64,000 bases of DNA from Candidatus Omnitrophota bacterium (GCA_043826565.1 JBDRPX010000028.1:16607-80606), one strand, 5' to 3'. Positions 1-29,745 are shown, counted from the first letter of the stretch. Notes: a model not told the origin generated them from the sequence alone. Numbers and translations are program-made.

Positions 1-91
1 TTTGTATTTTATTAGGAAATACTAAGGATTAACGATTTTATACATGAGTGTATAATATTTTTTCTTATTGTGATAGATATGTCGATATTAT

Positions 92-1153
92 ATGAAAAAT
101 AAAAAAATTGTTTTTCTCATAAGTTTTTGTCTGCTTTTGTTAAACTGCTCTGTTGCGTTCGCAACTTCATCCCCAGGATATGCATCAATATCCGGGCATG
201 TAAGCGATAAGATTATGGAAACCCCTTTACAGGGTGTATATGTCTTAATAAAATGCGGTTCATTTAAATCTTCGGTGATTACGGATGCTTCCGGATATTA
301 TGAATTTCCTCAAGTTCCTATTGATAAAAAGAAAAATAAAGATCAGGATAAAGCGCAGATTATTGTGCTTGCAAAACAATACCGTCCGGAAATAAAAAAA
401 CTTAATTTAAAGCCTAATAAAAATTACACCGTTGACTTCGCGCTCAATACGTTATTTCAATACCCTATTCTTAAGGGGAAGATAATTGATAGTTCTACTT
501 CTGAAGGTATTGCCGGAGCTCTAATTACTGTAAAAAATCCAAAAGAGACTTATACGGCAATAACCAATACACTTGGTCATTATGTTCTGCGGATAATGAA
601 CCGGCGAAAAGGCAAGTATACAGTAGAAGCTAGTGCTGATGGGTATATATCCAGCGCACCTCAAGTCCTAACAACCCGTCCACGCCTTACCTATACTTTA
701 AATTTCTCCCTAGATAAGGTAATGCTGGGAATTAATGTATCTCCGGATTCTTGGAACATTGGGGAAATAGCTCCTGGGAACATAGCGACAATGTCTTCCG
801 GACAAGAAATAGTTGTCAGTAATATAGGTTGGGAGACAAATCAGACCTATAGTCTGATGGTGGTCAATCCTTCAGGATGGACTGTTTCTCAAACTAGTGT
901 CGGAAGTGACAAATATATTTTAAATGCTTCTTTTGCTGAGAATCCGCTAACTATAAATTGGAATGAAGCTAATCACGCACTTTCTACAGAAGCTCAGAAA
1001 GCAACAAATACTAAATTTGCCGCGGATCAGACCGGGGTTAATGTCGCGCCGAATGAAGAACGAACTCTTTGGCTGCAATTTAAAGCTCCGACATCGACAA
1101 CTATTACCCAACAGCAGGAAATTGAGGTAATTATAAATACACAAGCTCCTTGA
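92..1153 (+). CDS. Secreted protein with two carboxypeptidase-regulatory-like (CarbopepD_reg) beta-sandwich domains
   Basis: N-terminal signal peptide (MKNKKIVFLISFCLLLLNCSVAFA). Two segments with the G-V-x-D..G-x-x-V..DxxGxY pattern typical of CarbopepD_reg domains. Long clean ORF. Confidence 0.6.
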   Translation: MKNKKIVFLISFCLLLLNCSVAFATSSPGYASISGHVSDKIMETPLQGVYVLIKCGSFKSSVITDASGYYEFPQVPIDKKKNKDQDKAQIIVLAKQYRPEIKKLNLKPNKNYTVDFALNTLFQYPILKGKIIDSSTSEGIAGALITVKNPKETYTAITNTLGHYVLRIMNRRKGKYTVEASADGYISSAPQVLTTRPRLTYTLNFSLDKVMLGINVSPDSWNIGEIAPGNIATMSSGQEIVVSNIGWETNQTYSLMVVNPSGWTVSQTSVGSDKYILNASFAENPLTINWNEANHALSTEAQKATNTKFAADQTGVNVAPNEERTLWLQFKAPTSTTITQQQEIEVIINTQAP

Positions 1154-1233
1154 TTATAAGGAGCTTTTATATAGATCGGTATTTTATATTAATTGTTAAA
1201 CATGTGAAAAAGGAATGAAAGGAGGAACAAGAA

Positions 1234-1707
1234 ATGAAGAAAGGGTTAATTTTAGGATTAATTATAGTTTTGTTGTGCGCGGCCAACGCGATGGCGCAGA
1301 CAGCCCAAATAGCGGTTACGGTTACAATCACTCAGAGTATTTCCGTGTCGGTAACTCCGGGCAGCTATGCGTTTGGGGGAACTGATTCCGGGCAGACTTT
1401 GTCTACAGCAGCAGGCGCGTTTGTCGCGACAAACGATGGAAATGGCGCAGAAAATCTTGCGATAACAGTTGGTGACAGCGCGAATTGGACCGCAAGTACA
1501 GCAGCAGGCGCGGATGCATTCGCGATGAATGCTTATATTGGAGCTACTTGGGCTTTGATAGATCCGGCAAGCGGAGTAAGTTTAGATGCCGGGTTAGCAC
1601 CAGCAGGAACCCAGAGTTTTGGGTTACAGCTTTTAGTGCCGACTTCTACATCTAATGCCGGAGTTGAACAGACTATTCCGGTAACAGTTACAGCATCAGC
1701 AAGTTAA
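1234..1707 (+). CDS. Small secreted Ala/Thr/Gly-rich protein, possibly a pilin/SCPU-like beta-strand subunit
   Basis: RBS AGGAGGAAC 8 nt upstream. Signal peptide ending AMA|QTA. Alternating T/V/A beta-strand-like N-terminus. 157 aa. Confidence 0.5.
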   Translation: MKKGLILGLIIVLLCAANAMAQTAQIAVTVTITQSISVSVTPGSYAFGGTDSGQTLSTAAGAFVATNDGNGAENLAITVGDSANWTASTAAGADAFAMNAYIGATWALIDPASGVSLDAGLAPAGTQSFGLQLLVPTSTSNAGVEQTIPVTVTASAS

Positions 1708-1725
1708 ATTTAAACTGAAGTTTGC

Positions 1726-1770
1726 GGGAATAGGATAGAAAGTGCGAAATATGCTTTTTATCCTATTCCC
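1726..1770. terminator. Perfect 12-bp inverted repeat (GGGAATAGGATA...TATCCTATTCCC) with a long loop, downstream of the 1234..1707 gene
   Basis: Arms at 1726-1737 and 1759-1770 read directly from the sequence. The loop is 21 nt and the T-tract is weak, so this may be a terminator or an operator-like hairpin. Confidence 0.35.
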
Positions 1771-1803
1771 CAGTACCTTTTAGAAAAAGAAAGTATATTT
1801 ATA

Positions 1804-2247
1804 ATGAAATCATTTTGTTTACTAATTATATTTTTATTAGCGCCGGTTACCGTTTATGCCGGAGGATTATCCTCTAATTGGGGGGAAGTTATTGTAAATA
1901 ATTTAGAACCGGGTAATACCTATGATCTTAATGAGATTGCCGGGAGTACTTTTAAAATCACTAATAATTTTGATAAGGAAATAACCATAAAGCTGGAAGT
2001 TTTAAGGCCAATAGAAGAAGAATTAAAACCAGGGTATGAACCGATTGAAAATACTTCCTGGGTGCAAATAGAGGAAGAAGCAAAAATCAATGCCGGAGAA
2101 TATAAAGTTATTCCCATAAAAATATCTATTCCTGATGATAGCAAGTATTTGGGAAAGAAATATCATTTTTGGGTATGGACGTATACTTCCGGGCAGGCTG
2201 TAGGTGTAGGATTAAAAAGCAGGATATTGATTTCGATAATAGATTAG
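1804..2247 (+). CDS. Small secreted hypothetical protein
   Basis: Signal peptide MKSFCLLIIFLLAPVTVYA. 147 aa. No recognisable catalytic motif. Confidence 0.5.
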   Translation: MKSFCLLIIFLLAPVTVYAGGLSSNWGEVIVNNLEPGNTYDLNEIAGSTFKITNNFDKEITIKLEVLRPIEEELKPGYEPIENTSWVQIEEEAKINAGEYKVIPIKISIPDDSKYLGKKYHFWVWTYTSGQAVGVGLKSRILISIID

Positions 2248-2261
2248 ATATTTAAAATGTT

Positions 2262-5200
2262 ATGATAAGAAAATTAATTTCTACAATAATAGGCATAATC
2301 TTAATGTTCGGGGTAAGCAGTTCTGCTTTAGCCGGACTTTCGGAGACGATTCTGCTTACTGTAACTGTCACTGATAATGACCCGCCTCCGTTTGTGGAAA
2401 TACTTTCTCCAATAGAAGGACAGGCCTATTCCGGAAGTTTTGAGATCCGGGGTACAGCTACAGATGATAATTTTGACTATGCTCAGCAGTATCATGGCCG
2501 GGGCGCAGTGCCTACAGAGTGGCTTTTGGATGATACCTATGATGATCCGTTTGAAAACTTTGTCGTTGCGAATGCTGATATAAGTGAAACAATAAACGGT
2601 GTTTACTCTATAAAATTTTGGGCAATAGATACTGCCGGACATGAAGCAGAAGATATTGTGATTTTTTCAATTGAAAATCCCCTTGTCTTACATACTCCGG
2701 CATCTTCTGAAGAAATGATTTCACCAAATGCCGATGGAAACAAAGATACAGTTGTCTTTTCCGCATATACTAATGATCCCAGAGTCAATTGGGATATTTC
2801 TATAAAAAATGATAGCAATGTGGAAATAAGGCATATCAGCGGAAGCGGAGCAGTTATTAGGGAAATTCCTGATCCTGGTGATCCGGGTGATACGAATGAA
2901 GCGGCAGTTATCGAACAGGTTTGGGATGGAAAAAATAATTCCGGAGTTGTTGTGTTGGATGGAAATTACACCTTTGAAATAATGGCTAATTATAATGGCC
3001 AGACTGTTGGGCCGGTTGGCGGTCAGGTTGAAGTTGATACAGCTCCACCGATAGCGCAGATTATCTCTCCGCAGGATTATGATGTTATCTCCGGAACCAT
3101 TGAAATGATCGGAACAGCAACTGATGCAAATTTTGAAATATGTGAAGTATATCATGGGTTAGGGGATGCCCCCGCGGAATGGGAGTTATTAAATGAATCA
3201 TACACAATTCCCCAGATCAATGCTGTTTTATTGTCAGCAAATATAATGGAAACAGTTAATGGCCTGCATTCTTTGCGGATTGTGGTTAAAGATAAAGCGG
3301 GCAATGAATCCATAGATACTCTTATAGTGGAATTTCAGAATGAGTTTAGATTATCGGATGGTGATGTTTCGGAGGATTTATTTTCTCCTAACACGGATGG
3401 GAACAAAGATACAGTTACAATTTCCGCGCGAACTAATGAAGAAACAGCCGCATGGACAATTATTATAAAAGATTCTATTGGCGCGGAAGTTAAACAATTT
3501 TCCGGACAAGGTGCTCAGATAGAACAGATTTGGGATGGTAAGGATGATTTCGGAGTTGTTGTGCCGGATGGAGTTTATACTTATGAGATCAGGGCTGCTT
3601 ATAATAGCCAGACTTTGGGTCCGTTAACCGGAACAGTAGAAATAGATACAGTTTATCCTGCGGCGGTGATTAGTTATCCGCAGAATGATGATGTAGTGAC
3701 CGAAGGCCCGAGGGTTGATGTGATTGGAACAGCCACAGATGATAATTTTGTGAGGTGTACTGTTTATTCAGGGTATGGGAGTAATCCTGATGAATGGGGG
3801 TATCGAGATACTTATAATGAACAAAAATCAGCAGAAATTTTGGCTGTTTTCGGAGTGTATTCACCTTTAATTAATACTACTTATGGAGCAAAAATAAGTG
3901 TTTTAGATAGAGCCGGCAATGAATCTGTGGCAACAGTGGTTTTTGATGTAAATTTAGGTTTTTATATTACTAATCAAAATGCTTCTTCGGCATTTATTTC
4001 TCCGAATGCTGACGGAGCTAATGATACCACAACGATTACAGCGGATGTTGTGGGATATATTTATTCTAGTACCTGGTTAATTTCTATTAGAGATTCGATA
4101 AATCAGGAAGTAAAACAGTTTAGCGGTTCAGGAAATATTAATCAAATATGGGATGGTAAGGATGCGCAGGGACAAGTGGTTCCTGATGGAGAGTATACTT
4201 ACGTGATAACCGCTACTTTTGGAGAGCAGACTACAGATCCTGTACAGGGAACTATTACTAAAGACACAGGGACTCCTATTGCTTTGATTACTTCCCCGCA
4301 GGAAAATGAAATTATTGATGATGGGCATACTGACCTTATCGGTACAGTGGGTGATGAAAATTTAGCCCAATATTCAGTTTATTACGGTCAGGGAAATTCC
4401 CCAGCAGAGTGGCATTTAATAGGGGCAGAGACTCATCATAGACTGAATGATGAGCTGGTGGTTAATGGCTGGTATACACAAGGATTGGGAAATGGCGCAT
4501 ATACTGTGCGGCTATTAGTAGAAGATAAAGCGGGAAATAAAGCTATAGATGATGTTTTAGTTGAAGTTAATAACGGGTTTTATATAGAGAATTACAATGC
4601 AAATCCTGAAAATATCTCGCCTAATAATGATGGATTTAAGGATAGCACAGTAATTAATGCGACAGTTGTTGGATATGAAACTAACTGGACGATTGCTATT
4701 AAAGATATAGAGAACAATATTATCCGTCAAATAAATGGTTTTGGTTTTAGCATTAACTTTGTTTGGGATGGGAATAATGAATCAGGGGAGACGGTTCCTG
4801 ACGGTATTTATACGATAGAAATTACGGCTGCATATAATACTATTACTACCGATCCTGTGGGTAGTCAGATTCAGGTAGATGTTTCTCCGCCAATAGCTAT
4901 TATTGCATCTCCGCAGGAAAATGCTGTTGTTTCCGGTTATGTAGAGATTTCCGGAACAGCTGCTGATGAAAGTTTTAAACAATATTCTGTTTTTTATGGT
5001 GAAGGGGCTGCTCCTGCAGAATGGAGTCAATTGGCAGTGAATAGTTATATTAAAGTTGATGAGGTATTAGCGTACTGGGATACTCGAGATTTAAATAACG
5101 GCACATATTGCCTGAAATTAGTTGTGGAGGATAATCATAATCTTGAGACCGAACAGATTATTCAGGTTGAAGTTGATAATGGATTTTCTATAATCAACTT

Positions 5201-8200
5201 TTGGATGGATCCGGATTATATTTCACCGAACGGAGATAATTTTAGAGATACAACTTCATTTCATGCGCAAATAATCGGGTATGCTGCGGATTGGGCAATT
5301 AGTATTAAAAATTCTGAGAATATGGAAGTTAGACGGCTTAGTGGACAAGGCTATTCAGTGAATGTTTCCTGGGATGGTAAAAATGAGTCAGGCATAGTAG
5401 TCCCGGATGGTGATTATACCTGGGAGCTTACTGCTGTATATAATACTCATACAGCAGATCCGATAAACGGGACCATAAAAATTGATGCTGCTTTTCCGAT
5501 AGCAGAAATAATTTCGCCTTTGCAAGATGAAGCAATTTCCGGAGAGGTTGATATTATGGGAACTGCTAATGATGCGAATTTTCATAGTTTTTCTCTTCAT
5601 TATGGCAAAGGAACAGATCCTCAGACTTGGGTATCTCTTTGTACGTCGCAGGATCCTGTGACTAATGGCATGTTGAATACATGGAATACTAATAATCTTG
5701 TAAATGGCATTTATACCTTGAGACTTGGAGTATGGGATGAGATAGGAAATAGTGTTTTTGATTTTGTACCGGTATTTTTGGCGAATGACCTTATTTTTGA
5801 AGATGTTAATATTACCCGTGATAGGATTTCTCCAAATGATGATGGTTTGAATGACAATACAATAATCACCGCTTGGACTAATGAAGCGGAAGCAGTCTGG
5901 ACGATTTCCATAAAAGATTCTACAGAGACAGTAGTGCGTGAGTTTACTGGTCAGGGATCTGATATAGAACAGGTATGGGATGGAAAGAACGAAGGGGGTG
6001 TTGTAGTAGACGGGGAATATAGCTGCGAGATAAGTGCAGAGTATAACAGCCAGACTGTTAGCGTGATTGCGGGAACTGTTATTGTGGATATTACTCCGCC
6101 GACAGCAATAATAACCTCGCCTGTTGAGAATGATAATGTTGCCGGGATTGTTACAATAACCGGGCAAGCTAATGATATTCATCTAAGTTCAAGAACACTT
6201 TATTACGGGCAAGGAGCTGGTCCAACAGAATGGATACAGCTATCTAATGTGGATTGGAATGAAGATGGTTTTAGCGCAACATGGGATACTTCTGGTCTGA
6301 CTAATGGGGTTTGTGTGTTACGTTTGGTAGTTAATGACAATTTTTCTCAGCAGACTATTAATTATGTTTCAGTTAATGTGCAAAATCCGTTAGTGTTGAT
6401 TTCTCCGAGTGTTGATTTTGAATATATAACTCCTAATGGTGATGGTATTCAAGATAATGTGACAATTACCGCTGTGGTAAATGAGCCACAAGCTAACTGG
6501 ACGATTTCCATAAAAGATTCTACAGAGACAGTAGTGCGTGAGTTTACTGGTCAGGGATCTGATATAGAACAGGTATGGGATGGAAAAGATGAGTTTGGTG
6601 TAGTTGTTCCGGACGGTGAATATACATATGAAGTAACTGCCGAATATGATACCCAGACAGCTGGGCCGGTTAGCGGGACAGTTATTGTGGATAATACTCT
6701 ACCTATAGCTGAAATAATATCTCCGCAGGAAAATGGAACGATTATGTGGTTTATGTCTATTATCGGAACAGCTAAAGATGATAATATCGCGGATTATTCT
6801 ATAAGTTATGGAAGAGGGGATGCTCCGGATACCTGGAGTACTTCTAGCCTTACCTTAAAGAGTCCAAGAAATATTTCCCGGGAAAATATTGAATTAGCTA
6901 CATGGAATACATCGGATAATTTTAATGATAGATATACGATAAAGCTTTCCGTTATTGATTTAGCCGGAAATACATCTACGGCTGAGGTTAGAGTAGATTT
7001 AGCTACCGGATTATGGATTCAAGATGCAGCGAGTAGTTTGAATTATATGTCTCCGAATGGAGATGGCGTTAAAGACACAGCAGCTATTAGCGGACGTCTA
7101 AATGAAGAATTCGCAAATTGGAAAGTTGAAATAAAGACTTCCTGGGGGGCGGTGATTCGCCAGTTTAGCGGACTGGGGTATAATATATCACAAGTTTGGG
7201 ATGGTAAAGACGAAACCGGAACTGTGGTAGATGACGGTGCGTATATATGGGAAATCAACGCAGAATATAATGGGCAAACCGCTTCTCCGGAAAGCGGTTG
7301 GATTACAGTTGATCTTAATCTGCCAACTGTTTCCATAACGACTCCTGGGGAAAATGATATTGTAAGCGGAAGTGTGAAAATAATTGGCACAGCAACAGAT
7401 GCGAATTTTTACTATTATAAATTTTCTTATGGAGTAGGTGCTGATCCTGTTGCTTGGAACAACTCTAATAATATAAGTACTCCTGTAGAAGATGGTGTTT
7501 TGGCTACTTGGTCTACTGGTAATCTAATCAATGGTATATATTCCTTAAGAATCATGGCCTGGGATCGCTTATTGCAGGTATCTTCAGATACGATTTTGGT
7601 TACCGTGGCTAATGAACTAACTTTACAGAATAGTTCTGTTTCTTTAGATGTAATATCTCCAAATGAAGATGGACAAAATGATAGTACAATAATAACAGCT
7701 TGGACAAATGAAGAATTAGCTACCTGGGCTATTTCCATAAAGAATTCCACAGATGGAGTAGCGCGTGAGTTTACCGGTCAGGGGTCTGATATAGAGCAGG
7801 CCTGGGACGGTAAAAATGAAACGGAAACAGTGGTTGCTGACGGTGAATACACTTATGAGGTTAGTGTTGAATATAATAGTCAGACAGTTGGCCCGATAGG
7901 CGGTACGATTATTGTAGATTCAACTGCACCTATTGCTTTAATTAGTTTACCTGGAGAAAATGATATTGTTAGCGGGAATGTGGATATTATTGGTATTGCT
8001 GCTGATCCTAATATGCATAAATATTATATTCATTATGGAAAAGGAACTGCGCCGACTGAGTGGACAAACATTAAAGAGAGTACGCAAACAGTAGATAACG
8101 CAGTTTTATTTACCTGGGATACGTTGAATAGAACTAATGGAATATATACATTAAGACTTCTGGTTCGTGATATTGTTAATAATGAATCTATGGATACTGT

Positions 8201-9758
8201 AAGTATTATTTTGAATAATGAACTGATATTAGATAATCTTACCATTTCCTTGGAGGTAATTTCTCCGAACGCAGATGGAAATAATGATAGCACAACAATT
8301 ACAGCTTGGACAAATGAAGAGTTAGCTAACTGGACGATTTCCATAAAAGATTCAGCAAGTACAATTGTACGTCAGTTTACCGGCCAGGGTTCTGATATAG
8401 AGCAAGTCTGGGATGGTAAAAATGAAACGGAAACAGTGGTTGCTGACGGAGAGTATACTTATGAGGTTAGTGCTGAATATAATAGTCAGACAGCGGGCCC
8501 GATAGGCGGTACGATTATTGTAGATTCAACTGTTCCGATTGCTGTGATTAGCTCTCCTGGGGAAAATGAAACTGTTTGGGGGGATATTTCTGTAATTGGA
8601 ACTGCTAATGATGCGAATTTGTTGTGGTACAGAGTATATTATGGAGAGGGGGAAAATCCCCAGACATGGTATCAGCTTATAAGTTCAAGTAACAGTGTTG
8701 TAAGCGGCCAATTGACAAGTTGGGATACTCTAACATTCCCCAACGGTATTTATACTTTAAAGTTACTTGTAAGAGATACTGTAAGTAATATATCGGAATA
8801 CTATACTAAGGTTAATCTGGAAAATATGGAAATTAAGAATGTGTCTGCTTCCCAGCAGTTTATTAATCCTGCGCATTCAGAGATTAGCACAATAGACTTT
8901 ATTTTGGATCGGGATGCGCAAGTAGCAGTAAAGATGTATCACGTATACATTAGATTTAATTCACTTGAAGGTACATATACGAGGAGTTATGTGGATACTG
9001 TAGCAACAGTTTTTGGTCAAGCCGGGGGTAACAGCTGTGTTTGGGACGGCCGGGATTCCGGAGGGGACCTGATGTCTTATGGAGCTTATGTTTATGAATT
9101 GGAAGCACTTGCTCCTGATGGGCGAAATGGGTTTTACGGCCCTGATTATGTGCGTGGTTTTGTGGATGTGACTAATATGACGGTAAATGCTAATGCGAAT
9201 CCGTATTATTGTGAGCGTTATAAAATCGATTATGATATTTCCCAGCCGGCTTTTGTAGTGATTGCTTTTAAAAATTTAGTAGGAGCTGTTTTGTGGGGAG
9301 AGCCAAGGTCAGCGGGAGGTCATTATGAATACTGGGATGGACGTAATCCTTTTACCGGTAAGATAGTGAATAATCAAACGACAACGCTAAGCGGGTTTGC
9401 CTGGACTTTGCCGGATAATTGTATTGTTGTTTATGATGACACATTGGAAATAACTGAATTATCCAGTGGAAGCTTTTTGATTCAACCGGGGTATAGCCAG
9501 GTTAGTAGTATAGGATATGCGATTAATGAAGATGCGGAAATTACAATTAAGTTATCTGATCCTAATGGTAATTATTGTAAAACACTTATAGATAATTCAC
9601 TTGTCAGCGCCGGGGCTTATCAAGTAGAATGGGATGGAATGAATGATGATGGAGAGCTTGTCTCAATAGAAGGGGATTATATCATTGAAGTTACCGCGTC
9701 TACTCCCGGAGGAGAAACTACGGTTATTAGAAGAGGCAATATAAAAGTCTATAAATGA
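2262..9758 (+). CDS. Giant modular cell-surface adhesin (2498 aa) built of tandem Ig-like plus FlgD-Ig-like modules
   Basis: Signal peptide. About 12 tandem ~200-aa modules. Each pairs a 'PIAxIxSPxxNxxVxGxVxIxGTAxDxNF..YYGxG..PxEW..WDTxxLxNGxYTLRL' domain with a FlgD-Ig-like 'ISPNxDGxNDxxxI..W(T/A)IxIKDS..FxGQGxxIEQVWDGKxExGxVVxDGEYTYE' domain. The C-terminal ~400 aa hold two more FlgD-Ig-like 'WDGRD/WDGMNDDGELV' units. Confidence 0.85.
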   Translation: MIRKLISTIIGIILMFGVSSSALAGLSETILLTVTVTDNDPPPFVEILSPIEGQAYSGSFEIRGTATDDNFDYAQQYHGRGAVPTEWLLDDTYDDPFENFVVANADISETINGVYSIKFWAIDTAGHEAEDIVIFSIENPLVLHTPASSEEMISPNADGNKDTVVFSAYTNDPRVNWDISIKNDSNVEIRHISGSGAVIREIPDPGDPGDTNEAAVIEQVWDGKNNSGVVVLDGNYTFEIMANYNGQTVGPVGGQVEVDTAPPIAQIISPQDYDVISGTIEMIGTATDANFEICEVYHGLGDAPAEWELLNESYTIPQINAVLLSANIMETVNGLHSLRIVVKDKAGNESIDTLIVEFQNEFRLSDGDVSEDLFSPNTDGNKDTVTISARTNEETAAWTIIIKDSIGAEVKQFSGQGAQIEQIWDGKDDFGVVVPDGVYTYEIRAAYNSQTLGPLTGTVEIDTVYPAAVISYPQNDDVVTEGPRVDVIGTATDDNFVRCTVYSGYGSNPDEWGYRDTYNEQKSAEILAVFGVYSPLINTTYGAKISVLDRAGNESVATVVFDVNLGFYITNQNASSAFISPNADGANDTTTITADVVGYIYSSTWLISIRDSINQEVKQFSGSGNINQIWDGKDAQGQVVPDGEYTYVITATFGEQTTDPVQGTITKDTGTPIALITSPQENEIIDDGHTDLIGTVGDENLAQYSVYYGQGNSPAEWHLIGAETHHRLNDELVVNGWYTQGLGNGAYTVRLLVEDKAGNKAIDDVLVEVNNGFYIENYNANPENISPNNDGFKDSTVINATVVGYETNWTIAIKDIENNIIRQINGFGFSINFVWDGNNESGETVPDGIYTIEITAAYNTITTDPVGSQIQVDVSPPIAIIASPQENAVVSGYVEISGTAADESFKQYSVFYGEGAAPAEWSQLAVNSYIKVDEVLAYWDTRDLNNGTYCLKLVVEDNHNLETEQIIQVEVDNGFSIINFWMDPDYISPNGDNFRDTTSFHAQIIGYAADWAISIKNSENMEVRRLSGQGYSVNVSWDGKNESGIVVPDGDYTWELTAVYNTHTADPINGTIKIDAAFPIAEIISPLQDEAISGEVDIMGTANDANFHSFSLHYGKGTDPQTWVSLCTSQDPVTNGMLNTWNTNNLVNGIYTLRLGVWDEIGNSVFDFVPVFLANDLIFEDVNITRDRISPNDDGLNDNTIITAWTNEAEAVWTISIKDSTETVVREFTGQGSDIEQVWDGKNEGGVVVDGEYSCEISAEYNSQTVSVIAGTVIVDITPPTAIITSPVENDNVAGIVTITGQANDIHLSSRTLYYGQGAGPTEWIQLSNVDWNEDGFSATWDTSGLTNGVCVLRLVVNDNFSQQTINYVSVNVQNPLVLISPSVDFEYITPNGDGIQDNVTITAVVNEPQANWTISIKDSTETVVREFTGQGSDIEQVWDGKDEFGVVVPDGEYTYEVTAEYDTQTAGPVSGTVIVDNTLPIAEIISPQENGTIMWFMSIIGTAKDDNIADYSISYGRGDAPDTWSTSSLTLKSPRNISRENIELATWNTSDNFNDRYTIKLSVIDLAGNTSTAEVRVDLATGLWIQDAASSLNYMSPNGDGVKDTAAISGRLNEEFANWKVEIKTSWGAVIRQFSGLGYNISQVWDGKDETGTVVDDGAYIWEINAEYNGQTASPESGWITVDLNLPTVSITTPGENDIVSGSVKIIGTATDANFYYYKFSYGVGADPVAWNNSNNISTPVEDGVLATWSTGNLINGIYSLRIMAWDRLLQVSSDTILVTVANELTLQNSSVSLDVISPNEDGQNDSTIITAWTNEELATWAISIKNSTDGVAREFTGQGSDIEQAWDGKNETETVVADGEYTYEVSVEYNSQTVGPIGGTIIVDSTAPIALISLPGENDIVSGNVDIIGIAADPNMHKYYIHYGKGTAPTEWTNIKESTQTVDNAVLFTWDTLNRTNGIYTLRLLVRDIVNNESMDTVSIILNNELILDNLTISLEVISPNADGNNDSTTITAWTNEELANWTISIKDSASTIVRQFTGQGSDIEQVWDGKNETETVVADGEYTYEVSAEYNSQTAGPIGGTIIVDSTVPIAVISSPGENETVWGDISVIGTANDANLLWYRVYYGEGENPQTWYQLISSSNSVVSGQLTSWDTLTFPNGIYTLKLLVRDTVSNISEYYTKVNLENMEIKNVSASQQFINPAHSEISTIDFILDRDAQVAVKMYHVYIRFNSLEGTYTRSYVDTVATVFGQAGGNSCVWDGRDSGGDLMSYGAYVYELEALAPDGRNGFYGPDYVRGFVDVTNMTVNANANPYYCERYKIDYDISQPAFVVIAFKNLVGAVLWGEPRSAGGHYEYWDGRNPFTGKIVNNQTTTLSGFAWTLPDNCIVVYDDTLEITELSSGSFLIQPGYSQVSSIGYAINEDAEITIKLSDPNGNYCKTLIDNSLVSAGAYQVEWDGMNDDGELVSIEGDYIIEVTASTPGGETTVIRRGNIKVYK
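5897..5986 (+). repeat. Intragenic 90-bp exact direct repeat, copy 1; copy 2 lies exactly 600 bp downstream
   Basis: The 90 nt 'ctggacgatttccataaaagattctacagagacagtagtgcgtgagtttactggtcagggatctgatatagaacaggtatgggatggaaa' is identical at 5897-5986 and 6497-6586. Confidence 0.8.
6497..6586 (+). repeat. Intragenic 90-bp exact direct repeat, copy 2
   Basis: Identical to 5897-5986. A second near-identical pair of about 115 bp lies at about 7810-7925 and about 8413-8528, offset 603 bp. Confidence 0.8.
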
Positions 9759-10624
9759 GAAAATATATTATATCTTTAATGTTATTAATATTTATATGCT
9801 TAACGGCAGTTTTTTGTCAGGGACAGGGAATGATTAAAGGCAAAATTGCTTATTCGGGGTTTACCGACGGATATTGGCAGATTTGGGTTATGGATTGCGC
9901 GGCAAAGTCTGCAGTTCAGCTGACCTCATCAAAGGTTGATAAAAAGACCCCGGTTTGGTCTCCGGAAGGAAAGAGAATTATTTATCGTACCAGCAACGGT
10001 GAATTTTTTCTGATTGATGTCGAAAGTAAAGAAGAAAAAAGAATATTTTCTAAGTTGGGATATCTGGTTGATCCATCATGGATTAGCTTAGAACGGATTC
10101 TTTTCGCGCGCTATCGTAGTGACTTAAAAGATGACAGTGATATTTGGAGCGCTGATCTTAATGGAGCCGGCGTAAAAGTAATAAATGAGGATTTGGGATT
10201 GCAGTACTTTCCGGCGATTTCTCCGGATGGGGAAAAAATAGTATATGTTTCCGGGAAAAAAGCGCATGAACATGATATTTGGGTTATGAATAAAAACGGG
10301 CAGGATAAAGTTCTGCTTGTTCAAAAATACGGCTATGACATTTGTCCGCGCTGGTCTCCTGACGGAAAGAGTATTGTGTTTGTTTCCGACCGTACGGGAA
10401 GCTATGAGATTTGGATAATGAATGCGGACGGAAGTAATCAAACGCAGTTTACCCGTACCAAAGGGTATAATAATAATCCGGCTTGGTCTCCTGACGGAGA
10501 AAGAATAGTATTTGTATCCAATGCCGGCGGGGATTTGCAGTTATGGGTAATGGATAAAGATGGCAATAATGCGGTACAGATAACAAGAGGCGCGGAATGC
10601 GTAGATCCGGCGTGGTGTTTGTAG
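9755..10624 (+). CDS. TolB-like periplasmic beta-propeller protein (PD40/WD40-like repeats)
   Basis: Signal peptide. Repeated 'P.WSPDG..I.FVS' PD40 motifs (PVWSPEGKRIIY, PAISPDGEKIVYVS, PRWSPDGKSIVFVSDRTG, PAWSPDGERIVFVS). ATGA overlap with the adhesin stop. Confidence 0.75.
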   Translation: MRKYIISLMLLIFICLTAVFCQGQGMIKGKIAYSGFTDGYWQIWVMDCAAKSAVQLTSSKVDKKTPVWSPEGKRIIYRTSNGEFFLIDVESKEEKRIFSKLGYLVDPSWISLERILFARYRSDLKDDSDIWSADLNGAGVKVINEDLGLQYFPAISPDGEKIVYVSGKKAHEHDIWVMNKNGQDKVLLVQKYGYDICPRWSPDGKSIVFVSDRTGSYEIWIMNADGSNQTQFTRTKGYNNNPAWSPDGERIVFVSNAGGDLQLWVMDKDGNNAVQITRGAECVDPAWCL

Positions 10625-10663
10625 GGACAATCTGGAAGAGGTGAGAGTATTAACACAAATAAT

Positions 10664-11788
10664 ATGCGTAGAATAATTTTTTTACCATTAATAGTAATGA
10701 TTGTAAGCGGCTGTGCCGCAAGACAGATGACTGTAAAAGAAGACCTTTATCCTGAACAAAGGTTTACGATATCTAATGTCTCGGCCAAGCCAAAGACTAT
10801 TAACAATACAAAAAGTCAGCGAGTAAAAATAGAATATTCGCTTTCGCAAGACGCGGAGGTTTCTGTTGATATATATGACAGTGATGACCGGTGGATAAAC
10901 TCAATTAAAAAAGACGTGACGGAAAAAGCCGGTAAAAATTTAGTAAAATGGGATGGTAAAGATAGTAATGAAGAACTTGTGCCTAGCGGCGCGTATATTT
11001 ATGTGATCAAAGCCAAGGATAATGCTGGTAAAAAAACAAAGTACGATCCTGCGGACATTAGTAAAGGCATCGGATTAAGTGAGCGGGAACTTATCTATAA
11101 TAAGGAAAAGAATAAAGTGCGATATATTCTTCCCCGGGCGGCAAGGGTTCTGATTCGCGCGGGTATTAAAGAAGGCCCGCTTCTAAAAACATTGGCAGAT
11201 TGGGAGCCGCGGGAAGCGGGTAAAAATTCCGAGGGTTGGGATGGCCAGGACAATGCCGGGAATTTAATAACTCAACATCCTGATTTTACTTTGTTTCTTT
11301 CCGCGTATTCTTTGCCGGATAACAGTATTATTGTAAAAAACAATAATAAAGGATTTGAATATGAATGTGCTTTTGAATTAAAAACAGAGCAGCCCCGGAG
11401 AGTCCCGCGGAATGTTACCGGAATAATCTTGCATCCTAGTGCAAAGCAAAGCTGCCGAAAAACCCGAGTGCCGCGTTTTAGTATTGAATTCCCAGAAGCA
11501 GACCATGATGAAAAAAGTGTTCCGGTTATTGCTGGTCCTACGACAATTAGGCTTAGTTGTGATGAACAGGATAAGCATCTGCTGGTTGAATCCCGTTTTG
11601 AAATCATTTGCTATATTGATAATATATTTTATTTTGAAGAGGAACAGGGTTTTACACCGTTTAATTACCGCTGGGATCCTCAGGGAATGACAGCTGGAGA
11701 ACATATTGTAACGTTTAATCTGCAAAGTTATACCGGAGCTGTGGGTACTAAAAGTTTAAAGGTTAGAATAAAAGGAAGAAAACAATAA
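10664..11788 (+). CDS. Lipoprotein with FlgD-Ig-like domains
   Basis: Lipobox IVMIVSGC|A. 'VKWDGKDSNEELVPSGAYIYVIKA' and 'EGWDGQDNAGNL' motifs matching the FlgD-Ig-like units of the adhesin. Confidence 0.7.
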   Translation: MRRIIFLPLIVMIVSGCAARQMTVKEDLYPEQRFTISNVSAKPKTINNTKSQRVKIEYSLSQDAEVSVDIYDSDDRWINSIKKDVTEKAGKNLVKWDGKDSNEELVPSGAYIYVIKAKDNAGKKTKYDPADISKGIGLSERELIYNKEKNKVRYILPRAARVLIRAGIKEGPLLKTLADWEPREAGKNSEGWDGQDNAGNLITQHPDFTLFLSAYSLPDNSIIVKNNNKGFEYECAFELKTEQPRRVPRNVTGIILHPSAKQSCRKTRVPRFSIEFPEADHDEKSVPVIAGPTTIRLSCDEQDKHLLVESRFEIICYIDNIFYFEEEQGFTPFNYRWDPQGMTAGEHIVTFNLQSYTGAVGTKSLKVRIKGRKQ

Positions 11789-14700
11789 TGAGAATTTACG
11801 CGAAAAAATTTAAAATACTATCCTTATTTATTATTATATGTTTTTTGTTTAATACTACAGTGGCTCCCTACGCGTATGCTTCACATTTAGGAGCTTGGGA
11901 TGATCATATCGGAATTCCCGGGCCGGATGTTCCTCCGCCCTATAATCCGGATAATCCGGATAATCCGGATGCGCCGCCATGCAATCCTTCGCCGCCGCCG
12001 CCGCCGGACATGTGTCCAAATCCGGAATCTCCGCCGGATCCCGGAGATGAGGATAAGAGCGAATGTACCGGAGGAGAACCGGTGTCTTTATATGACGGCA
12101 GTTTTTATTACCGGCATACCGACCTGGAAATTCCGGGAAGGATGTCTCTTTCTCTAAAAAGAGCCTATGATACCCGAAGTACCTATAACGGAGTTTTCGG
12201 ATACGGCTGGTCATTTAACTTTCATACGCGTTTATTTAAGGTATCTGACGGCACATTACTGCTTAAGCGCGGAGATAATACCGAAGATACATTTACCTAT
12301 GACAATGTAACAGGTAATCATCTTAGCCCTTTGGGTAAATACGAAACAATCATTTCTAATTCAGATGGTACCTATGTTTTAAAAAGTAAATATGGGTCAA
12401 AGTATCATTTTGATATTAATGGAGTCCTGGTAAAGATGGAAAATACAAAGGGCAACCAGATATTCTTAAGTTATGACCCGGCAGGCAAACTGCCGATTAG
12501 CGGCATATCTCCCTATTCAAACATAACCAATTCGATTGTGATCGGATATGACTACCGCTTGATAAAGATAGAAGAAGCGCAGAATGATATTCCCAGCGGA
12601 AGGTTTATAGAATTTTTCTATAATAATGACGGACGAATTATAAAGGCTAAAGATTTTACGGACAGAGAAGTTATCTATACCTATGATCCCAGCGGGAACG
12701 GAGATCTGCTGTCTGTGCAGGATCCGGAAGGTAATCTTTATGAATATGTCTATGATGAACACCGGATTGCTGTATTTTCCGATACAGCCAGCTGCAGCGG
12801 ATGCGGGGGATTGGGCGGCGGAGTGCATATAAACACCTATGATGACCAAAAGCGGATAAGCCGGCAGGTACATGGGAATAATATTGTGGATATAGAATAC
12901 ATTGTTCCTTATGAAAAAACCAAAGTAACTACGAGTATCTATAATGACGAAACCGAAGAATTTTTGCATACCCGGTATGAATATTTTGAATTTGATGAAG
13001 ATGGCTATACAATTAAACAAACCCGGCAGATGGGTGATTTTCTTGATGAAGACGGCGGCACAGAAAACGATGATATTATAAAAGAGATGGTTTATAATAA
13101 CGCGAAGAAAGTCGAGTCAAAGACCTATGCGCAAGGGAATGCTGTAGATTATACCTATGATGATAAGGGCAATATCCTGACCAAGACAGTGACATTAGAA
13201 GACGGAACTATTGTAACTACGCGGTATACTTATGAACCTAATAACAGTAAAGCAATGTCCAAAGAGATTACTTCTACGGATACTTCACAAACATACCGCA
13301 AGGAATATACGCGTTATGCTGACGGCAGTATCCACGAAGAAAAGACAATATTAGATGATACAACTACTTATACAACAACCTACACTTATACAGCTCAGGG
13401 AGATATTGATACTATAATTGATCCCAGAGGCAATACAATTAAACATGAGTATAATGGATATGGTTATCTTACCCGTGTCTATGACCCGAATAATCCAAGT
13501 CATCAGACATTATATGGTTATAATGATGTGGGCAATCGCGTATCCATGACTGATGCAAATAATAATACTTCAACTTTTACTTATGATAAACTCAACCGGA
13601 TTACAAAGATCACGACGCCTAAAAATGAAGAAACAATATATACCTGGGAAGGCACAAACTTAATCCAGATTGAAACCGGAAAATTAGGGGCGCAGGAAGG
13701 CCGGATTACGCAAATAGAATATGATGATTTAAACCGGAAAACCGCGATAAAACAGAAAAACGACAGTGCTGTTTTTGTAACTATGGCGGCTTATACTTAT
13801 GACTCCGAAGGTAAAGTTTTAACCACTACCGACGCATTAGGACATACTACGGCAAATAGTTATGATGTGATGGGGAGGCTGATACAGGTTACAAGCCCCC
13901 TGTCGCAGGCCACAAGTTATGAATATGATAAAAATAGTAATCTTATCGCTGTAATTGATGCCAATAACAATACTACAGAATATGAATATGACAAAACCAG
14001 CCGGCTTAGTAAAGTAATTCAATATGAAGGTACTGCTCCCATAGAGACAAGCTATATTTATGATTTTCAGGGGAACATTAAAACTATTACTGACGCGGAA
14101 ACTCACACAACTACTAATATCTATGATAATCTGGGCAGGCTGATACAAGTCACAAGTCCCATGTCACAAGTCACAAGTTATGAATATGATGCTAACGGAA
14201 ATCTAACTAAGAAAACAGACGCGAAAAATCAGGTTATTGAATATGAATATAATGCCTATAATCAGCTAACGCATGTTTATTATGGGGGGAAAACATCACC
14301 AATAAAGACAGTAGCTTTTACTTATGATGATGTGGGCAACATGGAAACCTGGAGCGATGGGGCTTATTCAGCAACGTATATATATGATGAATTAAATAGA
14401 GTCCTTAATGTTGCTACACAATATCCATTGGGCACAAAGACTGTATCGTATACATATGACCGGTTCGGGAACAAAGCTACACTGATATATCCGGATGCGC
14501 TGGGTGCGGTGACGTATAGTTATGATGCGTTTAATAGGTTAGTGCAGGTCACAGGTCCCATGTCGCAAGTCACAGGTTATGAATACGACAACTCTGGGCG
14601 GCTTCTAAGTAAGACTTTGCCCAATGGAGTTTATACGGATTATGGGTATGATGATGCAAATAGGCTGACGAGCTTGGTGAATAAGAAAAGTGACGCGAGT

Positions 14701-16008
14701 GTGATTAGTTCATTTAGTTATACGCATGATGGGGTGGGTAACAGAGTACAGACTATAGACCATAGACCATCGACCATGGACTATACCTATGATGATGTGT
14801 ATAGGTTAAAGCAGGTGGATGAGGATACGGTAACCACAGAGACGTATAGTTATGATAATGTAGGGAATCGGGAGACAAGTGTAGCACATAGTGATTGGAT
14901 GTATGATTCGGAAAATAAATTGCAATCTTACAACGGAATAACGTATAATTATGATAACAACGGAAATCTTATTTCAAAAGACGATAATGGTTCTTTGACT
15001 ACGTATAGTTGGGATTATGAGAATAGGTTAACAGGTGTTATTAATGCATCGAATATCAGCTATAGTTATGATCCTTTTGGGAAGCGAATAAGTAAGACTG
15101 TTGATGGAGTAACAAAGTACTATTTATATGATTCAGAAGATATCATTGTTGAGTATGATGCTGGAGGTGTTGTGGTAGCGCATTATGTGCATGGACAGGG
15201 AATAGATGAGCCGATTTCGATGACTCGAAATTCCAATACTTACTATTACACTATGGATGGATTAGGGTCAGTAAGAGGTTTGACGGATAATATAGAAGCA
15301 GTAGTTGAAAGTTATGAATATGATTCTTTTGGCAATCTTAAATCACAGCCGGCAACTGGGAATCCTTATACATACACATCAAGAGAATATGATGCAGAAA
15401 CGGAGCTTTATTTTTACCGGGCACGGTATTATGATAGTAGTGTAGGGAGGTTTATCAGCGCGGATATTATTGGATTTTTTGGGGGTATTAATTTTTATAC
15501 ATATGTAGAAAACAATCCGATATTAAGATTGGATGTATTTGGTTTAGCATGGACAACGATTGACTTTATATATCATTTTTATCGGGGTGGGGGGACAACT
15601 GTTGATATATCTACTGTAGGATTGCTAGAAAGATATAAAATGGATTCTTCCGTTGGGGTAGTGCGTAGTTTTTCGGAAATGGAAGTCAAAATTAAAACTA
15701 GAAGTTTTTATCAAACACTAAATGGAGGTGAGTCTGGAGACTTTAAAGTTTCTGGGGCAGGCCTAGTATATGTTACTACGATTTATGTATTGGCGGGGGG
15801 GTATTTAAATTATAATGGGAACTGCGTGGCAGTTAAAGACAAAAATTGTGAATGTGTGACAACTGTTTGTGAAATGTCATATAATTTTAGAGATACTTTT
15901 ACAGATCCCTTAGATACTGGGAAAGATTATGGCGGGACTAAATATGATATTATTGGTTCTTGGAAGGATACCTATTCTTATAAATACTGTCCGAGGGGTG
16001 AGAAATGA
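11788..16008 (+). CDS. RHS/YD-repeat polymorphic toxin with an uncharacterised C-terminal toxin domain
   Basis: Signal peptide, then a Pro-rich stretch (PDNPDNPDAPPCNPSPPPPPD). Dozens of YD repeats (YxYDxxGNR/L..). RHS core end 'YYDSSVGRFISADIIGFFGGINFYTYVENNPILRLDVFGL' (a DPxGL-type variant). A ~150-aa C-terminal tail (nt ~15550-16005) with no recognisable motif. Start overlaps the preceding stop (TAATGA). Confidence 0.9.
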   Translation: MRIYAKKFKILSLFIIICFLFNTTVAPYAYASHLGAWDDHIGIPGPDVPPPYNPDNPDNPDAPPCNPSPPPPPDMCPNPESPPDPGDEDKSECTGGEPVSLYDGSFYYRHTDLEIPGRMSLSLKRAYDTRSTYNGVFGYGWSFNFHTRLFKVSDGTLLLKRGDNTEDTFTYDNVTGNHLSPLGKYETIISNSDGTYVLKSKYGSKYHFDINGVLVKMENTKGNQIFLSYDPAGKLPISGISPYSNITNSIVIGYDYRLIKIEEAQNDIPSGRFIEFFYNNDGRIIKAKDFTDREVIYTYDPSGNGDLLSVQDPEGNLYEYVYDEHRIAVFSDTASCSGCGGLGGGVHINTYDDQKRISRQVHGNNIVDIEYIVPYEKTKVTTSIYNDETEEFLHTRYEYFEFDEDGYTIKQTRQMGDFLDEDGGTENDDIIKEMVYNNAKKVESKTYAQGNAVDYTYDDKGNILTKTVTLEDGTIVTTRYTYEPNNSKAMSKEITSTDTSQTYRKEYTRYADGSIHEEKTILDDTTTYTTTYTYTAQGDIDTIIDPRGNTIKHEYNGYGYLTRVYDPNNPSHQTLYGYNDVGNRVSMTDANNNTSTFTYDKLNRITKITTPKNEETIYTWEGTNLIQIETGKLGAQEGRITQIEYDDLNRKTAIKQKNDSAVFVTMAAYTYDSEGKVLTTTDALGHTTANSYDVMGRLIQVTSPLSQATSYEYDKNSNLIAVIDANNNTTEYEYDKTSRLSKVIQYEGTAPIETSYIYDFQGNIKTITDAETHTTTNIYDNLGRLIQVTSPMSQVTSYEYDANGNLTKKTDAKNQVIEYEYNAYNQLTHVYYGGKTSPIKTVAFTYDDVGNMETWSDGAYSATYIYDELNRVLNVATQYPLGTKTVSYTYDRFGNKATLIYPDALGAVTYSYDAFNRLVQVTGPMSQVTGYEYDNSGRLLSKTLPNGVYTDYGYDDANRLTSLVNKKSDASVISSFSYTHDGVGNRVQTIDHRPSTMDYTYDDVYRLKQVDEDTVTTETYSYDNVGNRETSVAHSDWMYDSENKLQSYNGITYNYDNNGNLISKDDNGSLTTYSWDYENRLTGVINASNISYSYDPFGKRISKTVDGVTKYYLYDSEDIIVEYDAGGVVVAHYVHGQGIDEPISMTRNSNTYYYTMDGLGSVRGLTDNIEAVVESYEYDSFGNLKSQPATGNPYTYTSREYDAETELYFYRARYYDSSVGRFISADIIGFFGGINFYTYVENNPILRLDVFGLAWTTIDFIYHFYRGGGTTVDISTVGLLERYKMDSSVGVVRSFSEMEVKIKTRSFYQTLNGGESGDFKVSGAGLVYVTTIYVLAGGYLNYNGNCVAVKDKNCECVTTVCEMSYNFRDTFTDPLDTGKDYGGTKYDIIGSWKDTYSYKYCPRGEK

Positions 16009-16415
16009 TTAAAAAATTTTTTATTGAATTTTTGTATTTTATTTTTGGCTCAATAATTACTTCAACATTATTTGTTATTATGCATAATTATTTTGCTAAT
16101 TATAATAATATGCCATTTTTCATAATTCTGATATTTCGAATAATAGATATATTTATTATCGGTTTTCCTGCTTTTGTGATCGCATTCCTGTGTTATATAT
16201 TAAGGAAACAAAAAGACTTTATCGATTCAAGTTGGTTCTTGGTGGGGTGTTTGTGGGCAGCGGTTTTAATAACAATAAAAAATATGCCTAACTTTTCTGA
16301 AAGATCGTTGTATCTATACGGCAAATTAATGGTATATTTTTTGCCAATGGTATTCAGCTATTTGATTGTTTTCCTTTTAAATCTTATTAGAATTAAGATT
16401 TTGGAGAAAAATTAA
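16005..16415 (+). CDS. Small polytopic membrane protein; cognate immunity candidate for the RHS toxin
   Basis: ATGA overlap with the RHS stop. 136 aa with about 4 hydrophobic helices. Position typical of rhs immunity genes. Confidence 0.5.
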   Translation: MIKKFFIEFLYFIFGSIITSTLFVIMHNYFANYNNMPFFIILIFRIIDIFIIGFPAFVIAFLCYILRKQKDFIDSSWFLVGCLWAAVLITIKNMPNFSERSLYLYGKLMVYFLPMVFSYLIVFLLNLIRIKILEKN

Positions 16416-18701: not shown

Positions 18702-18714
18702 AGGAGGGGAGAGC

Positions 18715-29558: not shown

Positions 29559-29745
29559 AAATCCTCCTTTCAAGTGTTTATAATTTAGGACAATATATTT
29601 AATTTATTATACTAATTTATCATTTCCGGGGCAAGAAATAACTGGAATATAAAAAAAGTATTTATGGTAAAAGGTTTACTTTTGTGTTAGAATTTTTAAT
29701 GGATTTATAAACTTTAAATTTGTGTCGGATACATGGAGGTTTAAG

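Follow-up and report, generated by a model that had tools for sequence, protein, structure and literature searches.

Rhs toxins are widespread weapons whose delivery in diderm bacteria is understood almost only for type VI secretion system (T6SS) cargo. The locus described here lies in a 64,000-nucleotide stretch of DNA from a Candidatus Omnitrophota metagenome-assembled genome (MAG; GCA_043826565.1 JBDRPX010000028.1:16607-80606), the whole of which is called the window. On its plus strand, between positions 92 and 16415, eight consecutive open reading frames (ORFs), with coordinates as in an original prediction made from the sequence alone, lead from three exported proteins (g1, g2 and g3) through a giant immunoglobulin (Ig)-repeat protein, a PD40 β-propeller and an Ig-like lipoprotein to an Rhs toxin and a presumed immunity protein. 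Comparison with other genomes reveals a selectively maintained linkage of such envelope proteins with a Sec-exported subclass of Rhs toxins. From the sequences we infer that the gene set would deliver or display the toxin.

The closest described systems each share part of this design. T6SS Rhs effectors (RhsA, Tse5, RhsP and Tre23, with Eag, PAAR and VgrG) have the same RHS cage, DUF6531 domain and core with an autoproteolysis motif. They end in a variable toxin domain with an immunity gene behind it, both of which are presumed for the window, and directly upstream of Rhs comes a small accessory gene. The best PDB sequence matches of the window Rhs are 8h8a, 8qja and 7q97. The window type differs in carrying a Sec signal peptide and a mature N-terminal motif, not PAAR or prePAAR/transmembrane (TM) helices, and its accessory set is entirely other. 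This Rhs is not of the T6SS type: PAAR and VgrG domains are absent, the N-terminus is a signal peptide, and no T6SS domains occur in the window or loci. WapA of Bacillus subtilis and other Gram-positive Sec-dependent YD/Rhs toxins resemble it in their signal peptide, independence from T6SS and polymorphic C-terminus with immunity gene, the last two presumed here. WapA, however, carries cell-wall-binding repeats and is not accompanied by a propeller, Ig protein or ChrB_C. The window contains a lipid A acyltransferase gene, which marks its host as diderm, so that an outer membrane must be crossed here, unlike for WapA.

Tc toxins and teneurins combine a YD/RHS cocoon with a β-propeller and Ig- or TTR-like domains, and the window Rhs matches TcdB2-TccC3 and 'teneurin-like protein' chains in the PDB by sequence. 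Here, in contrast, the parts are encoded by separate genes, the propeller is of the PD40/TolB type and not of the TcB or NHL type, and there is no TcA channel or SpvB domain; a Tc toxin was rejected because neither TcA channel nor SpvB/TcB N-terminal domains occur in the window or loci. Contact-dependent inhibition (CDI; CdiB/CdiA, a type V secretion system, T5SS) likewise pairs a large surface filament, as is proposed here, with a polymorphic toxin and immunity gene. It was rejected since the locus lacks TpsA/TpsB (CdiB) domains and encodes toxin and filament as separate proteins. In Tol-Pal, a periplasmic PD40 propeller gene adjoins an outer-membrane lipoprotein gene, often with overlapping codons; the present genes differ in the absence of the TolB N-domain and tolQRA, in three Ig-like sandwiches where Pal has an OmpA-like fold, and in a lipobox that is not family-wide. 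A 2012 survey of polymorphic toxins placed signal-peptide RHS proteins under a default 'T2SS/Sec-dependent' route (T2SS, type II secretion system) without partner genes, and makes no mention of TolB, PD40, FlgD or ChrB. A full-text literature search found no description of the neighbourhood.

Conservation of the gene set across phyla

The Ig lipoprotein family is the marker of the gene set. Its members are ~360-420 aa long, and a first search returned 101 homologues, among them a protein of a Candidatus Omnitrophota MAG that is 100% identical to the one in the window. A profile search of 1.84 billion representatives (50% identity) returned 1390 proteins at E<1e-30, giant adhesins included; among the 150 top-scoring ones, ~85 span the full length as single-domain-array members of the family. 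DNA around members was taken from genomes, metagenomes and plasmids, and all ORFs were scored against the window proteins by phmmer. A narrow-alignment locus search gave 5 genome and 10 metagenome loci, most context came from contigs encoding homologues, and most loci are metagenomic.

A DUF6531-Rhs gene lies within ~10 kb of the lipoprotein homologue in 19 of the 20 distinct loci with enough flanking DNA, which bears out the expectation that the Rhs, TolB-like and FlgD-Ig genes co-occur in related genomes. Control DNA totalling 108 kb, taken from the remainder of the window and from loci L036 and L037, contains no Rhs, PD40, lipoprotein or adhesin matches. Hosts belong to the Omnitrophota (the window, L001, L009, L010), the Desulfobacterota (Desulfatirhabdium, L008; a 'delta proteobacterium', L011; cultured Desulfosarcina ovata, L035) and the Gammaproteobacteria (plasmid pTs485 of Ca. 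Thiodictyon syntrophicum Cad16T, L030, and Photobacterium sp. GJ3, L031, on pGJ3-1 at ~884-913 kb, both cultured); further hosts are unassigned MAGs. A 'Cellvibrio sp.' MAG (L005) carries the lipoprotein family on a contig that stops before any Rhs position. The arrangement had been thought unusual and was proposed for this lineage; it is instead a recurrent pattern that spans at least three phyla, cultured strains included.

The genes recur in at least three orders. In order A (the window, L001/L013, L008, L009, L010, L014), the giant Ig protein is followed by PD40, the lipoprotein and Rhs, with g1-g3 preceding in Omnitrophota; L011, where only frameshifted lipoprotein and Rhs genes were found and no adhesin or PD40 match, may belong here. 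Order B (L003, L018, L019, L029, L030, L033, L035) begins with a PKD/FlgD_ig protein, an occasional small helical protein, Rhs and immunity gene, continues after an interval with PD40 and the Ig protein in either order and DUF1573, and ends in a solute-binding protein (SBP), permease, ATPase and ChrB_C. Order C (L023-L028, L031, L032) runs from a ChrB_C-rhodanese fusion through a 217-aa membrane protein, a divergent propeller, the Ig protein, a PKD/FlgD_ig protein and a small helical protein to Rhs. The core is made up of the Rhs/immunity pair, a large protein that has FlgD_ig at its end, the propeller, the Ig protein with its three domains and an exported ChrB_C protein. Optional additions are DUF1573, a small helical protein of the periplasm, and either a trio resembling an ABC importer or a multi-pass membrane protein. 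The window fits this pattern, with its DUF1573, SBP/permease/ATPase and ChrB_C genes all downstream of the Rhs cassette. The system is therefore not bounded at 92-11788, as first proposed, and extends to the Rhs/immunity pair and to the ChrB_C, DUF1573 and ABC genes beyond it.

The linkage is tight and old. In each of the seven loci with the order adhesin-PD40-lipoprotein-Rhs, the Rhs start codon overlaps the lipoprotein stop codon or is no more than 9 nt away from it, and linkage persists despite reshuffled gene order and protein identities of 21-58%. Over 14 loci, the identity matrices of lipoprotein, PD40 and Rhs core correlate (r = 0.66, 0.78 and 0.81), with Mantel p = 2e-4 for lipoprotein-Rhs and lipoprotein-PD40, the two pairs tested. 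Such correlation at these identities marks Rhs as a long-standing member that was inherited together with the others, as opposed to a recent insert.

The associated toxins share an N-terminal architecture. Every full-length associated Rhs has a Sec signal peptide and none has PAAR (signal peptides and cleavage sites were called by eye throughout). In 10 of 15, the motif W-[DN]-x(1,2)-[HR] lies within ~10 residues of the predicted cleavage site, preceded by an aromatic residue, as in YHFPWDQGHD or YDQPWNGNRED elsewhere and SHLGAWDDH in the window; the other five have G-[ST]-G-D-type or other N-terminal variants. A Pro- and often Cys-rich linker then leads to DUF6531. Among 72,556 plasmid records, 922 have a DUF6531-Rhs-like match, yet only two of these, from Thiodictyon and Photobacterium, align from the N-terminus, and the same two plasmids are the only ones with the Ig-protein family. 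This confinement indicates that the partner set marks a small, specific Rhs subclass.

Known delivery systems are absent from these neighbourhoods. As originally reported for the window, no T6SS, T5SS or type VII secretion system (T7SS) domain occurs among its 49 larger ORFs, which were scanned against Pfam and NCBIfam, the source of the domain families given here. None is listed in any locus surveyed either, and no vgrG, eag or T6SS core gene lies within ~10 kb in any of them. The RefSeq annotation of pTs485 lists no T6SS genes in the 49 kb downstream of the locus.

Several loci have further features in or around them. In Desulfosarcina ovata (AP021879.1, ~798-818 kb), the complete set adjoins F-type conjugation genes (TraF, TrbC, TraU, TraN and a coupling protein) and is probably carried on an integrative conjugative element (ICE). 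In L030 (pTs485, 232-241 kb) and L033 (400-9100), the stretch that separates Rhs from the PD40/Ig pair has gathered insertion sequence (IS) elements, genes for defence-like ATPases (AAA_15/AAA_21 with DUF4276) or orphan immunity genes (MafI, DUF1493, ankyrin). L001 (1-11406) has two tandem paralogous PD40-Ig pairs, one followed by DUF1573 and the second inside a complete g1-g3-adhesin-PD40-Ig-Rhs array whose PD40 and Ig genes have a further ORF, of 134 aa, between them. A Phage_P4_cII-like gene and a convergent 'Beta_protein' gene flank the set in L023 (5321-6834) and L029 (11981-13610), which differ in architecture. Finally, L010 and L036 come from the same MAG (GCA_018817165.1): the Rhs array of one reaches the contig end with an Rhs fragment, while ABC and ChrB_C genes lie 4 kb from the start of the other. 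The two contigs may be adjacent, split by repeated Rhs sequence.

Components of the set

The window Rhs (Table 1) consists of a signal peptide (aa 1-31), the mature N-terminus, a Pro/Cys-rich linker, DUF6531 (aa 96-169), the RHS cage, the Rhs core (aa 1178-1253) and a ~150-aa C-terminal domain (aa ~1256-1406) without family match. The RHS/YD repeats score 176 bits against a cut-off of 15.8 (TIGR01643), and the Rhs-associated core scores 73.7 bits against 32.5 (TIGR03696). The core sequence ...NNPILRLDVFGL reads as a variant of the PxxxxDPxGL cleavage motif. Pfam finds no PAAR or VgrG domain in the protein, whose N-terminus is a signal peptide instead. By its sequence features this appears to be a genuine Rhs polymorphic-toxin locus. 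The 136-aa ORF that follows is presumed to encode the immunity protein, and its position and drop in GC to 0.26 fit a toxin/immunity cassette. Neither it nor the Rhs C-terminus matches a Pfam or NCBIfam family; its four TM segments suggest that the window toxin is directed at membranes. Two small ORFs beyond it, at 16467-16694 (2 TM) and 16717-17121 (signal peptide), may be orphan immunity genes.

The giant protein is presumed to be an adhesin. The claim that FlgD-Ig-like units recur in the array holds: the WDG...VPDGxY motif occurs 13 times in the giant protein, at ~203-aa spacing, and twice in the lipoprotein. At the DNA level, a repeat search gives a period of 606-621 nt; Tandem Repeats Finder recovered no repeats of the giant gene, whose period exceeds 500 nt. 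The C-terminal module of the protein is paralogous to domains 1-2 of the lipoprotein: BLASTP aligns 209 aa at 31% identity, and both have the motif LPDN[SC]I[IV]V. The same relation holds in all nine loci tested (the window and 8 others) and in many giant proteins of the representative library. The giant protein might also be cargo of a type IX secretion system (T9SS). The one CHU_C stretch of six with known position, aa 1594-1683, falls in an internal repeat unit, and a T9SS is unexpected in Desulfobacterota and Gammaproteobacteria, which also carry the gene set.

The Ig lipoprotein was modelled with AlphaFold2 (AF2) at a predicted local distance difference test score (pLDDT) of 90.7 and a predicted template modelling score (pTM) of 0.84. 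Its description as a FlgD-Ig lipoprotein is apt for the window protein, which has a VSGC lipobox, and cannot be carried over to the family, of which lipidation is no trait. The family profile matches FlgD chains at 5.7e-11. A true FlgD was nevertheless rejected: the N-terminal FlgD domain is absent, NCBIfam FlgD equivalogs reach 16-36 bits against cut-offs of 230-383, and no flagellar genes lie nearby. A fold search with the model returned generic β-sandwich matches only (Vpr, PorU, FlgD, complement) and no functional assignment.

The propeller has TolB C-domains as its closest solved relatives (PDB sequence search, 6e-22), in an alignment that covers propeller residues only. The label 'TolB-like' therefore suits the propeller and nothing beyond it. 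A true TolB was rejected, as the protein scores 171 bits against the TIGR02800 equivalog cut-off of 343, lacks the N-terminal α/β domain of TolB, and has the adhesin, Ig lipoprotein and Rhs as neighbours in place of tolQRA and pal.

The secreted ChrB_C protein is a core partner. Nearly every locus with sufficient flanking sequence has it, either by itself or as a fusion with DUF1573 or rhodanese. Its AF2 model (pLDDT 91.9) is a compact α/β domain. The protein lies closest to an H. pylori protein that is itself uncharacterised and shows a weak similarity to N-domains of the DHH family. As for the ChrB regulator, the ChrB_C domain is present, the N-terminal ChrB domain is absent, the protein has a signal peptide, and no chrA is nearby.

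Further partners are less constant. The DUF1573 gene lies 3' of the lipoprotein gene in L001, L003, L029 and L035. The ABC trio occurs in L003, L008, L018, L029, L030, L033 and L035; its nearest NCBIfam models are PhnS2/PhnU2/PhnT2, all below cut-off. The 389-aa membrane protein has a CcdA/DsbD-like motif by sequence reading and is not kept in other loci. Type C loci have, next to ChrB_C-rhodanese, a multi-pass membrane protein of 217 aa with His residues (L025, 3952-4605), which is loosely reminiscent of YedZ/MsrQ. Pfam and NCBIfam match nothing to it or to the small periplasmic proteins. The thioredoxin/CcdA-like protein, the 217-aa protein and Cys-rich Rhs linkers such as CPSGNCDECG give a hint of periplasmic redox handling.

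The first three genes are, as predicted, all signal-peptide proteins, although g1, with 353 aa, is not small. It is specific to the Omnitrophota arrays among the loci compared, with homologues at the same position in L001 and L010 (4e-97 and 4e-94). Both g2 (1e-51 and 2e-57) and g3 (2e-58 and 3e-55) are kept in these loci too. Neither has a Pfam or NCBIfam match, and a PDB sequence search with g2 was empty.

Transcription and translation of the array

The ORFs and domains confirm the row of 2498-aa protein, PD40 propeller, FlgD-Ig lipoprotein and Rhs on one strand. Read from the sequence, the giant-protein and PD40 genes overlap by ATGA at 9755, the lipoprotein and Rhs genes overlap by 1 nt (TAATG) at 11788, and Rhs overlaps the 136-aa ORF by ATGA at 16005; 39 nt separate the PD40 and lipoprotein genes. 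Translational coupling was proposed for the whole operon, but g1 and g2 (80 nt) and g2 and g3 (96 nt) are uncoupled, with strong RNA hairpins in both spacers. None of 200 shuffles is as stable as the first hairpin, which is a candidate attenuator or stabiliser. The hairpins and the strong ribosome-binding site (RBS) of g2 suggest that g2 may be differentially expressed. Two very stable hairpins around a gene with a strong RBS are a pattern typical of a highly expressed structural subunit with attenuated neighbour genes.

No terminator-like site was found at the adhesin/PD40/lipoprotein/Rhs/immunity gene junctions; the scan matches within 2262-16415 are weak and all inside coding sequence. Nor did the window scan find a strong promoter between the adhesin, PD40, lipoprotein and Rhs genes, so that the separating signals named in the original prediction as telling against it are missing. 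The best plus-strand terminator-like site, 3' of the Rhs cassette, is the probable end of the transcription unit. Together these results suggest that the stretch between ~92 and ~17370 is transcribed as one unit, and that the ABC and ChrB_C genes belong to another. GC dips to 0.26-0.31 over 15.8-17.6 kb (the Rhs 3' end, immunity-like ORF, two small ORFs and DUF1573 gene), which fits what is usual for exchangeable toxin/immunity cassettes.

Table 1. Features of the gene set and its surroundings in the window (aa, amino acids; dG, folding free energy).
Feature	Position	Strand	Basis
Sigma-70-like promoter candidate upstream of g1, TTAACG-16-TATAAT	29..56	+	consensus scan, 10/12 matches; weak alone
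g1, 353-aa signal-peptide protein, CarboxypepD_reg x2	92..1153	+	Pfam 9.9e-23
RNA hairpin overlapping g1 stop codon, then UUUUAUAU	1143..1166	+	dG -12.5 kcal/mol, z -4.05
g2, 157-aa signal-peptide Thr/Ala-rich beta protein, strong RBS AAAGGAGG	1234..1707	+	sequence reading
RNA hairpin between g2 and g3, 18-bp stem	1726..1770	+	dG -29.7 kcal/mol, z -7.07
g3, 147-aa signal-peptide protein, weakly Ig-like	1804..2247	+	sequence reading
Giant 2498-aa signal-peptide protein, ~10 repeats of ~203 aa (Big_7-like + FlgD_ig)	2262..9758	+	Pfam FlgD_ig, 11 stretches, 3.5e-68, and Big_7
C-terminal module of giant protein (aa ~2190-2498), paralogous to domains 1-2 of lipoprotein, with terminal FlgD_ig	8829..9755	+	BLASTP 3e-22
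289-aa signal-peptide PD40 beta-propeller, TolB C-domain-like	9755..10624	+	Pfam PD40 PF07676 3.9e-39
374-aa lipoprotein, lipobox VSGC, three beta-sandwich domains (FlgD_ig + two)	10664..11788	+	Pfam FlgD_ig PF13860 1.1e-13
1406-aa Rhs toxin	11788..16008	+	RHS_repeat PF05593 x11, 6.5e-75; DUF6531 2.3e-17; TIGR03696
136-aa four-TM ORF overlapping Rhs stop (ATGA), GC 0.26	16005..16415	+	sequence reading
124-aa signal-peptide DUF1573 Ig-like protein, recurrent partner	17118..17492	-	Pfam 2e-13
Best plus-strand intrinsic-terminator-like site, 3' of Rhs cassette	17340..17376	+	11-bp stem, then TTTTTTATAA
389-aa membrane protein, weak thioredoxin-like N-terminus	17532..18701	+	Pfam Thioredoxin_4 0.0018
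ABC importer-like trio (SBP, permease with two fused domains, ATPase), recurrent partner	18691..21976	+	Pfam
161-aa signal-peptide ChrB_C-domain protein, core recurrent partner	22154..22639	+	Pfam PF09828 1.7e-29

Elsewhere in the window, two secretin genes (48689-50476 and 52765-54711) lie 33 kb downstream with an AAA_22 ATPase and TPR proteins. This cluster (47127-55695) resembles an outer-membrane cluster of the T2SS or type IV pilus (T4P) kind and could serve Sec-exported folded proteins such as Rhs. An AbiEii-type toxin gene with a 209-aa partner upstream occupies 27144-28566, and two tandem response-regulator/HD-GYP-like genes occupy 29722-31988.

A proposed model for toxin presentation and its alternatives

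The reading that we favour, at a little less than even confidence, is that the window holds one copy of a conserved multi-phylum helper set for a Sec-exported, T6SS-independent Rhs subclass, which presents the toxin together with an adhesin. All parts would reach the periplasm via Sec. At the outer membrane, the propeller would pair with the three-domain Ig protein (in the window, a lipoprotein) much as TolB does with Pal, and the two would capture Rhs by its conserved, exposed mature N-terminus and flexible Pro/Cys-rich linker. The giant Ig-repeat protein might dock on the same complex through its Ig-paralogous C-terminal module or, alternatively, that module might mimic the propeller/Ig pair. 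The toxin cage would then be presented with the adhesin for contact-dependent attack, and the C-terminal toxin freed by the usual Rhs autoproteolysis. ChrB_C and the inner-membrane module may provide energy or redox coupling, and crossing of the outer membrane may need general machinery (e.g., the secretins elsewhere in the window), vesicles or lysis. A more far-reaching version, in which the propeller, Ig protein, ChrB_C and an inner-membrane module (the ABC trio or multi-pass protein) constitute an unrecognised trans-envelope route for export and presentation of Rhs and adhesin, spread by plasmids and ICEs across phyla, is rather unlikely.

Several observations weigh against the helper-set reading. 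No recognisable outer-membrane channel, secretin or export ATPase is found among the components of the set, which leaves the step across the outer membrane unexplained. The lipobox is not kept across the lipoprotein family, many of whose members have an ordinary signal peptide. The correlation of identity matrices is partly expected from shared host phylogeny, and the location of several loci on plasmids or ICEs means that co-transfer contributes to the linkage. The paper on the Thiodictyon genome describes T6SS genes in other parts of it, both chromosomal and on pTs485. The ABC trio is of the importer type and far better conserved than the other parts (SBP E ~1e-130), as expected of a metabolic transporter, and one locus of the 20, L015, has a propeller and Ig pair without Rhs. 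The last two points also belong to another explanation: PD40, Ig protein, DUF1573, ChrB_C and ABC genes would be an envelope module or one for nutrient uptake (oxyanion, metal or phosphonate-type), beside which an unrelated adhesin/Rhs/immunity competition cassette repeatedly lodges on mobile islands. The trio and ChrB_C are indeed a compact unit, the permease resembles the ModB/CysT/PhnU families, the 4 kb between the contig start and the ABC and ChrB_C genes of L036 contain no Rhs, and plasmid, ICE, IS and defence-gene contexts are common. However, type C loci (Photobacterium, L023-L028 and L032) lack the trio and retain ChrB_C, propeller, Ig protein, adhesin and Rhs. Moreover, window-type Rhs and adhesin genes are interleaved with PD40 and lipoprotein genes, with stop codons that overlap starts, the Ig protein has a paralogue in the adhesin C-terminus, and the linkage outlasts divergence to 21-30% identity and several rearrangements. 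Two such modules are an improbable origin for the pattern. The trio, much better conserved than the rest and missing from type C loci, is the least certain member of the mechanism.

The resemblance of Rhs to TcB/TcC cocoons and solved 'teneurin-like protein' chains would also be explained by a split Tc-toxin-like or teneurin-like holotoxin, soluble or surface-bound, with propeller and Ig proteins docked on the Rhs cocoon and the giant protein binding the receptor. The CarboxypepD_reg/TTR-like g1, the propeller, the Ig/FN-like domains and the YD shell mirror the domains of teneurins as these are generally known, and all parts have signal peptides; yet the window has neither a TcA-like translocation channel nor an SpvB domain, Rhs brings its own DUF6531 N-terminal domain, and g1 is confined to Omnitrophota loci, which makes this a distinctly improbable account. 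Slimmer still is the chance that the TolB-Pal-like pair and ChrB_C handle the envelope itself, altering the integrity of the outer membrane or its vesiculation, with periplasmic Rhs escaping in vesicles or by lysis as a result, or shielding the envelope of the producer from the toxin. The propeller and lipoprotein genes are adjacent as in tolB-pal, the closest solved relatives of the propeller are TolB, no translocon gene is present, and the immunity ORF encodes a membrane protein, all of which such handling would accommodate. It leaves the adhesin paralogy and the conserved Rhs N-terminus unexplained, the Ig protein has no OmpA/Pal-like peptidoglycan-binding domain, and there is neither a TolB N-domain nor tolQRA. 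That an Rhs gene stands next to surface-protein genes in one MAG by chance was conceivable while a single locus was known; the association in 19 of 20 loci across phyla, and in none of the control DNA, refutes it and leaves it scarcely any probability.

Implications

The conserved partner set supplies concrete candidate genes for how signal-peptide Rhs toxins leave the periplasm and reach their target. If the trans-envelope reading is true, it would constitute a new T6SS-independent route of Rhs delivery in diderm bacteria. Because the set is present in cultured Photobacterium sp. GJ3, Desulfosarcina ovata and Ca. Thiodictyon syntrophicum, genetics and biochemistry are feasible. The survey also assigns a context to three uncharacterised families: FlgD_ig proteins of ~370 aa with three sandwiches, secreted ChrB_C proteins, and DUF1573. 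For the Omnitrophota themselves, the set may bear on their suspected epibiotic or predatory habits.

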